Shown: in pieces, positions 13,288-56,821 of the stretch
How the letters are laid out: each line of letters starts with the position of its first letter
Position numbering within the stretch: position 1 is the stretch's first letter
DNA from: a bacterium
GTDB taxonomy: Bacteria > Patescibacteriota > Minisyncoccia > UBA6257 > Colwellbacteraceae
Direction of reading: 5' to 3'
Assembly: GCA_021787205.1 (NCBI GenBank)
Contig: JAJYME010000007.1
Coordinates: forward strand, 74,334 to 138,333
Length of the DNA stretch: 64,000 bases
Made by a program: the position numbers and the translations under genes
Notes under the pieces: generated by a model
What the model saw: only the letters and a program-made list of their open reading frames with translations
The model's database searches: none
Told to the model about the DNA's origin: nothing

Positions 13288-13360
13288 GCCGAAGTAGCTC
13301 AGCTGGTAGAGCAATGCTTTCGTAAAGCAGAGGTCGCGAGTTCGAATCTCGCCTTCGGCT
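13288..13360 (+). tRNA. tRNA-Thr (CGT)
   Basis: GCCGAAG-TA-GCTCAGCTGGTAGAGC-A-ATGCT-TTCGTAA-AGCAG-...-GCGAG-TTCGAAT-CTCGC-CTTCGGC-T. Anticodon loop TTCGTAA with a 27:43 mismatch. Confidence 0.75.
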
Positions 13361-13370
13361 CAGTATAAAG

Positions 13371-13397
13371 GGCGAGATTCTCGCCTTCGGCTCAGTA
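13371..13397 (+). repeat. partial direct duplicate of the tRNA-Thr 3' end, 18 nt after the tRNA, preceded by an inverted T-stem copy
   Basis: 13378-13397 TTCTCGCCTTCGGCTCAGTA repeats the 3' end of the gene at 13346-13365 (ATCTCGCCTTCGGCTCAGTA). GGCGAGA at 13371-13377 is the reverse complement of the T-stem 3' strand. Confidence 0.55.
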
Positions 13398-15727: not shown

Positions 15728-15810
15728 CTACAAAATACCTCCCGCCATCATGGGGATAAGTGAAATAACCGCAAAAAACAGGAAAAAATACCCGGAGATA
15801 GAAGCAACAG

Positions 15811-15884
15811 TTCGATTCCCGCCTCATCCTTATATAAAAATACCCGCATAGGATGCAGGTATTTTTGATGAGCGAGTAGCGGGA
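15811..15884 (+). repeat. copy A of a ~74-bp direct repeat (right-flank-like TTCGATTCCCGCCTCATCC + terminator hairpin + antisense tRNA-Gly 3' end); copy B is 15991..16064
   Basis: The two copies differ at two positions (the g/a and a/g in TACCC[g/a]CATAGGATGC[a/g]GGTA) and lie 180 bp apart. Copy B runs into the real tRNA-Gly gene. Confidence 0.6.
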
Positions 15885-16009
15885 CGCTAGCTATCTCACG
15901 TCGCGGAAGTGTCCGCTCCTATGAAACCCACGGTTTCATAAACATCCTTCACGGAAGGGATACCTTCATCTCCCTTCCGACCCATCCCTATTCGATTCCC
16001 GCCTCATCC
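15866..16009 (+). repeat. tRNA-associated element copy L3: direct copy of the tRNA-Gly 3' end, a diverged core with hairpin TATGAAACC-CAC-GGTTTCATA, then an inverted copy of the tRNA-Gly T-arm
   Basis: Left flank 15866-15884 TGATGAGCGAGTAGCGGGA equals the antisense of the tRNA-Gly 3' end. The core aligns with L1 (TCACGTCG...CTCC-hairpin-AA.ATCCT-.ACGG...TCCC-CGACCC). Right flank 15985-16009 CCCTATTCGATTCCCGCCTCATCC shares TTCGATTCCCGC exactly with the tRNA-Gly T-arm. Confidence 0.5.
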
Positions 16010-16046
16010 TTATATAAAAATACCCACATAGGATGCGGGTATTTTT
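16010..16046. terminator. bidirectional hairpin terminator after tRNA-Gly (-), also closing the L3 element (+)
   Basis: A-run, TACCCACAT-AGG-ATGCGGGTA stem, T-run; an identical architecture occurs at 15830-15866. Confidence 0.55.
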
Positions 16047-16050
16047 GATG

Positions 16051-16122
16051 AGCGAGTAGCGGGAATCGAACCCGTGTCTCAACCTTGGGAAGGTTGCATA
16101 ATGGCCACTATACGATACTCGC
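16051..16122 (-). tRNA. tRNA-Gly (CCC)
   Basis: Reverse complement GCGAGTA-TC-GTATAGTGGCCATTATGC-A-ACCTT... with anticodon arm CAACC-TTCCCAA-GGTTG, T-arm CGGG-TTCGATT-CCCG and acceptor TACTCGC-T. Confidence 0.8.
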
Positions 16123-53394: not shown

Positions 53395-53628
53395 TTATTT
53401 ATCTAGCCATTCTTCTTTAGGAATCCCCGATTGTATAATTATTGATCTTAAGGTTTTCGGATTAATCACATCCCCTTTATGAAATGGTATCGTGACGATT
53501 CTTTCCTGCCCGTTGTAAAAACAAGAATAGTACATATGGCTGCCTCTCATATGAGTATTTGAAAACCCATATTTTTTGAGAAATCTCATAACATCCTCAG
53601 CTCTCCAATTTAACAATCCTCTTACCAT
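53395..53628 (-). CDS. hicA: HicA-family mRNA interferase toxin
   Basis: FLKKYGFSNTHMRGSHMYY...VTIPFHKGDVINPKTLRSIIIQSGI matches the HicA/YcfA consensus (RGSH, VP.H, L..IlkqaG). Confidence 0.7.
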   Translation of the reverse strand: MVRGLLNWRAEDVMRFLKKYGFSNTHMRGSHMYYSCFYNGQERIVTIPFHKGDVINPKTLRSIIIQSGIPKEEWLDK

Positions 53629-53630
53629 AT

Positions 53631-53960
53631 TTATGCGGTTACGAGTCTTTTATTCATATTAAGTTCGCCAAATGTAAATATTCTATTTTTGTTTTTTTCA
53701 GTTTCACGCTCCTCCCACATTATCGTATACTCCTTATCGGGAACCTGATTTAGAACATCTGGTCTCGCTTTTACTTTAATAGCGGTCTCAACATATCCTT
53801 TCAATGCCTCAAAGAGAAGCATCATTGCTTCTTGAGGAGTTGACCCCGTCTCAACAATATTAAACTCCAATCCTACAGCAAACCAATCATTGCCCTCTTT
53901 AAAAACAATATATCTCACCGAACCCTTTTGAAGAGTATTTTTATATCGCTTTATTGCCAT
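53631..53960 (-). CDS. hicB: HicB-family antitoxin (UPF0150 / RNase H-like N-domain)
   Basis: 109 aa immediately upstream of hicA with a 3-bp gap. YIVFKEGNDWFAVGLEFNIVETGSTPQEAMMLLFEAL fits the HicB N-domain pattern. Confidence 0.6.
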   Translation of the reverse strand: MAIKRYKNTLQKGSVRYIVFKEGNDWFAVGLEFNIVETGSTPQEAMMLLFEALKGYVETAIKVKARPDVLNQVPDKEYTIMWEERETEKNKNRIFTFGELNMNKRLVTA

Positions 53961-54056: not shown

Positions 54057-54057
54057 G

Positions 54058-54141
54058 TGCGCAAGAGAGGACTCGAACCTCCAAGCCCTTGCGGGCGCTA
54101 CCACCTCAAGGTAGTGCGTCTACCAATTTCGCCACCTGCGC
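54058..54141 (-). tRNA. tRNA-Leu (GAG), long variable arm
   Basis: Reverse complement GCGCAGG-TG-GCGAAATTGGTAGACGC-A-CTACC-TTGAGGT-GGTAG-CGCCCGCAAGGGCT-TGGAG-GTTCGAGT-CCTCT-CTTGCGC-A. Confidence 0.8.
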
Positions 54142-56746: not shown

Positions 56747-56747
56747 G

Positions 56748-56821
56748 TGGGCGATACTGGACTCGAACCAGTGACCTTTACAATGTCAATGTAACGCTCT
56801 AACCAGCTGAGCTAACCGCCC
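56748..56821 (-). tRNA. tRNA-Val (GAC)
   Basis: Reverse complement GGGCGGT-TA-GCTCAGCTGGTTAGAGC-G-TTACA-TTGACAT-TGTAA-AGGTC-ACTGG-TTCGAGT-CCAGT-ATCGCCC-A. Confidence 0.8.

Follow-up and report, generated by a model that had tools for sequence, protein, structure and literature searches.

The genomes of Patescibacteria are tiny, their tRNA genes are single-copy, and to our knowledge few mobile elements have been described in them. In better-known systems, T-loop-class integration is classically marked by a direct repeat that extends from within the T-loop through the 3' end of the tRNA, while the attP site of the CTX phage consists of two inverted dif-like sites ~90 nt apart. Here we describe a family of small structured elements, each located downstream of an intact tRNA gene, in a 64,000-nucleotide stretch of DNA from a Colwellbacteraceae bacterium (contig JAJYME010000007.1, positions 74,334 to 138,333; hereafter the window) and in related genomes, with emphasis on the family member next to tRNA-Gly, which is enclosed by two copies of a 74-nt direct repeat.

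Group I introns have been found in the anticodon loops of Patescibacteria tRNAs, and group II introns were not detected in this group (PMC13011429). These introns are the nearest published case and represent a different phenomenon; full-text literature searches retrieved no description of the architecture reported here. Judged from the sequences, the family is a set of small, non-coding, lineage-restricted modules of 95-115 nt, present in a narrow lineage of Patescibacteria related to Candidatus Colwellbacteria. Among named sequences, the CTP synthase is matched best by those of Candidatus Colwellbacteria and other Patescibacteria.

A structured core behind five different tRNAs

The 106-nt core at the tRNA-Gly locus (15885-15990, minus strand; family member L3) had been reported, in a preliminary description made from the sequence alone, to align with those of two further elements, L1 and L2. 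Both nhmmer (E ~1e-31 to 1e-33) and a covariance model (90-93 bits) support this relationship. The model, R1, was built from five copies and matches L3 at 15884-15990 with 93.1 bits (E=7.5e-24). The two other copies in the window, both on the minus strand, are L1 (3453-3590; 90.9 bits), downstream of the initiator tRNA-fMet (3623-3695), in which the core stands between an inverted flank and 18 nt that repeat the tRNA 3' end directly, and L2 (56573-56712; 90.1 bits), downstream of tRNA-Val (56747-56821). A further copy, L22L, follows tRNA-Leu(CAA) in record L022, ~6.6 kb past the window end; since 13 kb of L022 agree with the window at 99.99% identity, this copy belongs to the same strain. The remaining two, L9G and L9T, follow tRNA-Gly and tRNA-Thr, respectively, in one assembly of a sister species (L009; pyrG 86% identical at the protein level). 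The loci of L22L, L9G, and L9T were retrieved by way of neighbouring proteins. The six copies are thus distributed behind five different tRNAs, all six co-oriented with the tRNA, and R1 scores each of them at 80-100 bits, the next best match in ~330 kb of window, relatives, and viral candidates reaching 13.8 bits. Scanned with the same model, the corresponding loci of relatives with ~70% pyrG identity contain no family copy.

All six copies share one layout: read in the tRNA sense, an intact tRNA is followed by a spacer or terminator, an inverted copy of its own tail, the core, and a direct copy of its own tail, such that the resident tRNA is never interrupted. The inverted flank is in every copy the reverse complement of the adjoining tRNA from approximately G53 through the trailer, with small deletions. 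The direct flank repeats the same tRNA from T60 or the end of the T-loop through the trailer, over 16-19 nt in L1, L2, and L9T and over 63-74 nt in L3, L9G, and L22L. When the fMet, Val, and Thr copies were tested for a decayed long repeat, similarity beyond the 16-19 nt was not significant (p = 0.15-0.48); these short direct copies are nearly identical to the tRNA, although the adjacent sequence has diverged beyond recognition. Because the flanks carry tRNA-specific T-loop bases and species-specific trailers, they are copied locally rather than carried by the element.

The core has three hairpins, here given for the minus strand of L3. P1 (15952-15979; CGGAAGGGA / TCCCTTCCG) and P2 (15920-15940; TATGAAACC-GTG-GGTTTCATA, located by pattern match) have 9 bp each; over the six copies, compensatory changes affect six of the nine pairs of P1 and four pairs of P2, in which 100% of the alignment cells are paired. 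P3 (15903-15916; GCGGA-CACT-TCCGC) is variable, with covariation at 5/5 pairs: four other copies have a stem of different sequence at the same position, and the fMet copy lacks it. In an alignment of the six sequences from three assemblies, made by hand and fitted to the structure, 98.5% of 130 cells are paired and 15/23 pairs have changed on both sides. None of 500 shuffles matched the observed pairing and covariation, and sliding the 3' partners left 35-55% of cells paired. RNAalifold finds the same three helices, adding two U.G pairs to P2, and every copy folded alone with its flanks yields a closing stem and three hairpins, with z-scores of -2.9 to -5.9.

Beside the covarying helices lie conserved, single-stranded junction motifs: GGGTCGG, CCGTATAGGA (CCGTNNNGGA), and GTGAGAT. 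The last of these, read from the alignments at 15893-15899 on the minus strand, is the minus-strand image of the TCACGTCG region singled out beforehand; it stands directly before the direct flank in five copies and is replaced by GTGAAAT in L1. It resembles the T-loop segment G53-T59 (GTTCGAT) with TC changed to GA, and its pairing with the inverted T-loop would yield a helix containing tandem G.A/A.G pairs. The loop of P2 is GAGA or GGAA in four copies and GTG in L3, and G.U pairs as well as between-repeat substitutions are tolerated on the tRNA-sense strand only; taken together, the GAGA and GGAA loops and the wobble pairs indicate that the tRNA-sense strand is the one that matters. In a structural model, the inverted tRNA tail would place the core at the apex of a long pseudo 'T-arm/acceptor' hairpin, in which the three inner hairpins would produce a four-way junction.

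The two Gly loci, L3 and L9G, retain 84% core identity between species. In the same comparison of the window with L009, third-codon positions of pyrG are 40% identical (saturated), and identity is 67% in the intergenic DNA that follows downstream of the element, where gaps are numerous. By sequence comparison, the core is a discrete unit under selection.

Constraint of this kind can be read in terms of benefit to the host. The element might be a structured non-coding RNA gene that is transcribed together with the tRNA and set free when the tRNA 3' end is processed, with the tRNA-derived closing stem serving as a processing or stability handle, new copies arising only by rare local duplication, and the 74-bp repeat representing a by-product of gene conversion that involves the adjoining tRNA tail. 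Core identity of 84% against saturated synonymous sites favors such a gene, as do the conserved unpaired junctions next to covarying helices, the GNRA-type loops and tRNA-sense wobble pairs, the uniform co-orientation with the tRNA, and the 16-19-nt direct copies kept nearly identical to the tRNA amid diverged neighbours.

Promoter scans found none inside the elements on either strand, the only sigma-70-like promoters detected being those upstream of tRNAs, and any transcription of the element probably starts at the tRNA promoter and reads through. The tRNA-Met at 3623-3695 (minus strand) has the C1xA72 mismatch typical of bacterial initiator tRNAs and a strong promoter of its own (TTGACA-17-TACAAT, 3737-3709); since only a weak hairpin separates it from L1, L1 is probably co-transcribed with tRNA-fMet. 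At the Thr copy of L009, no terminator lies between the tRNA and the element; this, like the weak hairpin at fMet, favors a host RNA gene.

A host RNA agrees just as well with the constraint and the strand evidence, but fits the distribution of the family less well than does a mobile element, as the copies are patchy among very close relatives, the tRNA partners vary between genomes, and there is no consistent neighbouring gene. In addition, the closing stem draws on different parts of the tRNA tail in different copies (in L3 the acceptor strand is deleted), no Rfam family matches, and we can propose no function. We consider a host-beneficial RNA somewhat unlikely, though a serious candidate; if correct, the family would be a class of regulatory or processing RNA, linked to tRNAs, that has so far escaped recognition.

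The 74-nt direct repeat at the tRNA-Gly locus

The element downstream of the intact tRNA-Gly(CCC) (16050-16122, minus strand, by ARAGORN; Rfam tRNA, 54 bits at 16051-16122) lies in a neighbourhood of pyrG, a DivIC-like gene, murI, and tRNAs. The core is enclosed by a repeat of which the preliminary description had given the essentials: a 74-bp unit present twice, 180 bp apart, with two substitutions. A repeat search returned precisely this arrangement, 15811-15884 and 15991-16064, with 72/74 positions identical and a spacing of 180 nt. The gap between the repeats is 106 nt, or 161 nt counted from the 19-nt repeat, and contains no plausible open reading frame (ORF).

The repeated unit, here called A, combines the tRNA 3' end, a terminator-like hairpin, and an inverted tRNA-derived flank, as had been proposed. 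In copy 1, which adjoins the tRNA (15991-16064, minus strand; repeat family D1, bounded by junction alignments) and includes the last 15 nt of the tRNA gene, the order in the tRNA sense is 14 nt of tRNA from T60, the final T-loop base, over the 3' strands of T-stem and acceptor to the discriminator, the trailer, a 10-bp hairpin between an A-run and a T-run, and the inverted flank. The hairpin (16016-16046, minus strand; inverted repeat I5) has one G.U pair on the minus strand, where its stem is followed by TTTTT. It was not listed by a consensus terminator scan, probably because the A/T runs at its sides are absorbed into the stem.

The inverted flank of copy 1 (15991-16015, minus strand; inverted repeat I3) reads TTCGATTCCCGC-CTCATCC on the plus strand, that is, the sense T-loop, the 3' strand of the T-stem, and the trailer of tRNA-Gly, with the acceptor strand TACTCG deleted; it matches the tRNA at 12/12 and 6/6 positions on either side of the 6-nt gap. 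The assignment of T-loop and T-stem sequence to this flank was accurate, TTCGATTCCCGC at 15991-16002 being the sense T-loop plus the 3' strand of the T-stem. On the minus strand the segment forms the 5' strand of the stem by which the element is closed. Unit A as a whole is a long imperfect palindrome centred on the terminator-like hairpin (I3).

Copy 2, distal to the tRNA (15811-15884, minus strand), repeats the tRNA 3' end in direct orientation at 15866-15884, has a hairpin of its own at 15836-15866 and an inverted flank of its own at 15811-15835, and aligns over 55/55 nt with 2 mismatches (score 100, shuffle mean 13). The segment 15866-15884 is identical to 16046-16064. It had been taken for the antisense image of the last 19 nt of tRNA-Gly; an antisense tRNA tail it is, composed of 14 nt of tRNA (T60 to discriminator 73) and 5 nt of trailer. 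The two between-copy substitutions had been described as mismatches at different stem positions of the two hairpins. They do lie in the stems, where they form G.U and U.G wobble pairs on the minus strand, probably the transcribed one, and A.C mismatches on the plus strand only.

A spurious tandem duplication introduced by assembly or binning has to be considered for any such structure, and more so here, as the window comes from a metagenome-assembled genome (it was assigned to contig DAHWOP010000007.1 of GCA_027339325.1), a run of N falls exactly in the repeat of the sister assembly L009, and short-read contigs break at the repeat. The two copies, however, differ at two positions, both structure-preserving transitions, and the same architecture is present in three assemblies and at a second locus, with L009 having its own repeat sequence. 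Moreover, independent Logan assemblies of two sequencing runs (L006, L007) of the same strain break exactly 30 nt inside the repeat, as expected for a k=31 graph branch, which indicates that the reads continue from the repeat in two different ways. An artefact is accordingly a very remote prospect. In practical terms, repeat-core-repeat loci of this kind break short-read assemblies, and the pseudo-tRNA fragments that they contain can mislead annotation.

The long repeat recurs, with 72/74 identical positions at Gly in the window, 54/54 visible positions at Gly of L009, and 62/63 at Leu(CAA). The A units of L009 and the window have different terminator stem sequences and different inverted-flank deletions, whereas within a genome they are 97-100% identical. 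Given the same repeat-core-repeat arrangement at Gly of L009 and at Leu(CAA), the long repeat is a recurrent property of one subfamily. A recent event involving the element, as first suggested for the tRNA-Gly locus, is in keeping with these data as far as age is concerned, since the copies are 97% identical while neutral sites between the sister species are saturated, and the element is indeed involved; it was not a lone event at this locus.

At Leu(CAA), the inverted flank in both A copies is already decayed relative to the tRNA, and the duplication of the near-identical A copies is on this evidence younger than the element. Beyond the second A of this locus, at L022:1660-1715 (~6.7 kb from the end of the window), stands AAGGA, with which the core begins, and next to it a third, older and diverged copy of trailer and terminator. 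This succession suggests later partial re-copying rather than a clean target duplication, and at least two successive events.

A shorter allele, which had been suggested as a point of comparison, is present in a sister genome. In L008, a closer relative (pyrG 90% identical), tRNA-Gly is followed by one terminator and an inverted-flank remnant, GCGGATCGAAT, with a single unit and no core. From its sequence, this allele looks like the product expected from recombination between two A units. As substrates for recombination, the repeats would lead to strain-level length polymorphism next to essential genes.

Gain, loss, and possible origin of the elements

Presence and absence among relatives extend to other loci. 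The Val copy is absent from L021 and L018, which have neither core nor inverted flank at tRNA-Val. In L018, a restriction-modification module consisting of a LexA/S24 domain fused to a DNA methylase and a Bsp6I-like endonuclease is inserted directly after the tRNA-Val terminator (L018:7339-9513), where the window carries L2. At tRNA-Thr of the window (13288-13361), a core-less remnant, which duplicates the 3' part of the tRNA partially and in direct orientation, begins 10 nt downstream (13372-13394, plus strand; GCGAG-ATT-CTCGC-CTTCGGCTCA). This remnant (GCGAGATT-CTCGCCTTCGGCTCA) equals L9T minus the stretch between its two GYGAGATT repeats; with its T-loop shortened to ATT, it may be either a footprint or an unoccupied pseudo-T-arm.

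The reading that we tentatively favor, with somewhat less than even confidence, is that of a structured insertion element, non-autonomous and associated with tRNA tails, or equivalently of a mobile RNA gene. The conserved core would be the selected unit, found behind different tRNAs and gained and lost among close relatives, while the flanks would be copied from the target when a copy becomes established, most plausibly by DNA synthesis that makes a U-turn or switches template at hairpins. In the T-loop, GTTCGA, which is near-universal and nearly palindromic, could provide the microhomology seed, giving rise to tRNA tails of alternating orientation: tail forward, hairpin, tail reversed, core, tail forward, to which subfamily A would add a hairpin and another reversed tail. 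The 74-bp repeat would then be the 3' module in its entirety, from tRNA tail over terminator to inverted flank, copied to the far side of the core, an event that recurs in one subfamily, by repeated duplication, gene conversion, or re-insertion. The direct repeats might subsequently recombine and collapse to a single core-less unit, as in L008. A selfish element of this type would represent a new way for DNA or RNA to use tRNA genes as safe harbours while leaving the tRNA intact.

Several observations weigh against this proposal. It is based on six copies from three assemblies, with a covariation alignment that was fitted by hand to the structure, and the scheme of template switching is a reconstruction. 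Inspection of ~90 kb of this genome, whose contig measures 497 kb, revealed no recombinase, transposase, reverse transcriptase, or HUH nuclease, nor did we find an unambiguous empty site, devoid of any inverted flank, at the same locus of the same species. Core identity of 84% over saturated divergence, moreover, suits a host-beneficial RNA equally well.

The start of the direct repeat in the T-loop and its course through the tRNA 3' end also bring to mind tyrosine-integrase elements that integrate in tRNA T-loops. As a decayed remnant or cis-mobilisable miniature of such elements, the locus would have its direct tail copies as attL and attR, and its core as a conserved att-proximal arm, perhaps a folded single-strand att site like CTX-phage attP or integron attC; the inverted target-like arms around a ~100-nt spacer do resemble the folded CTX attP. 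In relatives with ~70% pyrG identity, tRNA-Gly is separated by unrelated inserts of 115-230 nt from a second 3'-end copy with the same T-loop start position (~230 nt at L016:6776-7020 and 115 nt at L010:5198-5320), which suggests that the junction from T-loop to 3' end is a general insertion hotspot in the clade. The displaced 3'-end copy in L010 retains the ancestral acceptor sequence.

The family described here departs from integrase elements in having no integrase in the regions inspected and no ORF, with only 106-161 nt between the repeats, and covariation of its hairpins would be unexpected for duplex arm-type binding sites. In addition, the same core is found at five tRNAs, each with perfectly local repeats; as site-specific recombination would import the tRNA tail of the previous host, this argues against an integrase origin, which we judge improbable.

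A bolder version of the mobile-element proposal, for which we would claim little probability, is that the core represents a novel type of mobile element, a structured RNA or a single strand, that specifically colonises T-arm-like hairpins, building its own landing hairpin from the neighbouring tRNA tail in both orientations, so that the single-copy tRNA stays undisrupted. It would propagate without an element-encoded protein, by means of host replication and repair or of an RNA activity of its own, and its active or recognition centre would consist of the conserved tandem G.A motif and the junctions rich in purines.

Other insertions and structured sequences next to tRNAs were encountered in the window and its relatives. 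Between tRNA-Asp (3909-3982) and tRNA-fMet, at ~3780-3870 of the window, an inverted T-loop and 3' end of tRNA-Asp (CGTTCAAATCCCCAAGCTGGCAGAAC, plus strand) follows the tRNA-Asp terminator and precedes hairpin-rich sequence that the family model does not match, and that may represent another element of this general kind, either different or degenerate. Structured elements of ~150 nt belonging to a different family stand directly after tRNA-Thr in L010 (11870-12140), L012 (6263-6420), L013, and L011; they are bounded by terminal inverted repeats of ~25 nt (GGCTGGTTCTTATTTCCGGAAAAAG / CTTTTTCCGGAAACAAGAACCAGCC in L012) and occur as two related tandem copies in L010. Right after the terminator of tRNA-Leu(GAG) (54057-54141), the window carries a two-gene module with a HicA-family toxin (~53400-53960; L022:18482-19047).

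Comparison with known systems

Database searches linked the core to no described family. With Rfam 15, whose families include self-cleaving ribozymes, tmRNA, and Y-RNA-like RNAs, only the tRNAs passed threshold in gathering mode; in E-value mode, weak matches overlapping the core had E-values below ~0.3, far under gathering scores, and others fell on tRNA, terminator, and flank regions. No similar DNA was found by blastn against phage and plasmid records, and three scans of viral contigs returned no family member. The exact P2-J1 pattern gave chance matches only (L001-L004) in genome and metagenome collections, a search so strict that it would miss the sister-species copy.

Four further candidates were rejected. 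Hammerhead-type motifs (CUGANGA ... GAAA), sought by eye, show no conservation between copies. A short target duplication that simply flanks the core is not general, the 8-nt GYGAGATT repeat being confined to the Thr copy. An origin by reverse transcription, with the flank as primer-binding site, is at odds with a flank that holds the genomic trailer instead of CCA. That the element imitates an acceptor stem so as to be aminoacylated or to receive CCA is unlikely, given that the acceptor strand is deleted from the L3 inverted flank and that the 3' trailer is base-paired.

Small RNAs derived from tRNA precursors or 3' trailers are comparable to the element in being co-oriented with and directly downstream of a tRNA, without a promoter of their own, and stably structured. 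A duplicated tRNA tail and an inverted flank are, in contrast, not features of known examples, and Rfam provides no match. Retron msr/msd loci differ in that no reverse transcriptase is adjacent to the element at the tRNA-Gly locus, where the neighbours are those named above. Quasipalindrome template switching and fold-back inverted duplication share with the family the alternation of direct and inverted copies centred on hairpins (terminator and core) and junctions with microhomology; template switching alone explains neither the occurrence of the same core at different tRNA loci nor its conservation.

IS200/IS605-derived elements, which have subterminal hairpins, lack terminal inverted repeats and target duplications, and are inserted 3' of a fixed tetra- or pentanucleotide by a TnpA (Y1 HUH) enzyme, are brought to mind by the hairpins and by a core that follows (N)GAA in 6/6 copies and GAAC in 5/6. 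In contrast to these elements, direct repeats are present here, and no TnpA was found in the ~90 kb inspected. Folded single-strand sites such as integron attC and CTX attP have inverted target-like arms around a ~100-nt spacer, an imperfect bulged hairpin, and, in the case of cassettes, units placed between near-identical palindromes. The ends of the element, GTTCGAT and ATCGAAC, match the attC core sites GTTRRRY and RYYYAAC at 6/7 positions each, a likeness that is loose and explained by the T-loop, as the arms here are tRNA-derived. No IntI was seen in the same ~90 kb.

[quoted passage not shown] Unlike theirs, the inverted repeats described here copy the local target and differ between copies, rather than being carried by the element; copy number is very low, and the copies have diverged with compensatory changes instead of remaining near-identical. 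No cognate transposase or RAYT gene was seen in the inspected part of the genome. MITEs further differ in the fixed short length of their target duplication, while the direct repeats of the present family measure 16, 17, 18, at least 63, 63, and 74 nt and always begin in the T-loop.

The tyrosine-integrase islands and prophages that integrate in tRNA T-loops correspond to the family in having a direct repeat from the T-loop to the 3' end and beyond, an intact tRNA with the insert downstream, and repeat-mediated loss resulting in a shorter allele. They differ from it in that the inserts described here, of ~100-160 nt, have no integrase or coding capacity, include an extra inverted copy of the tail, and consist of one covarying, multi-hairpin core that is found at five tRNAs with local flanks. 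The element thus resembles MITEs and REPINs, tRNA-integrating islands, and folded att sites, each in parts, and departs from every one of them in at least one defining feature.

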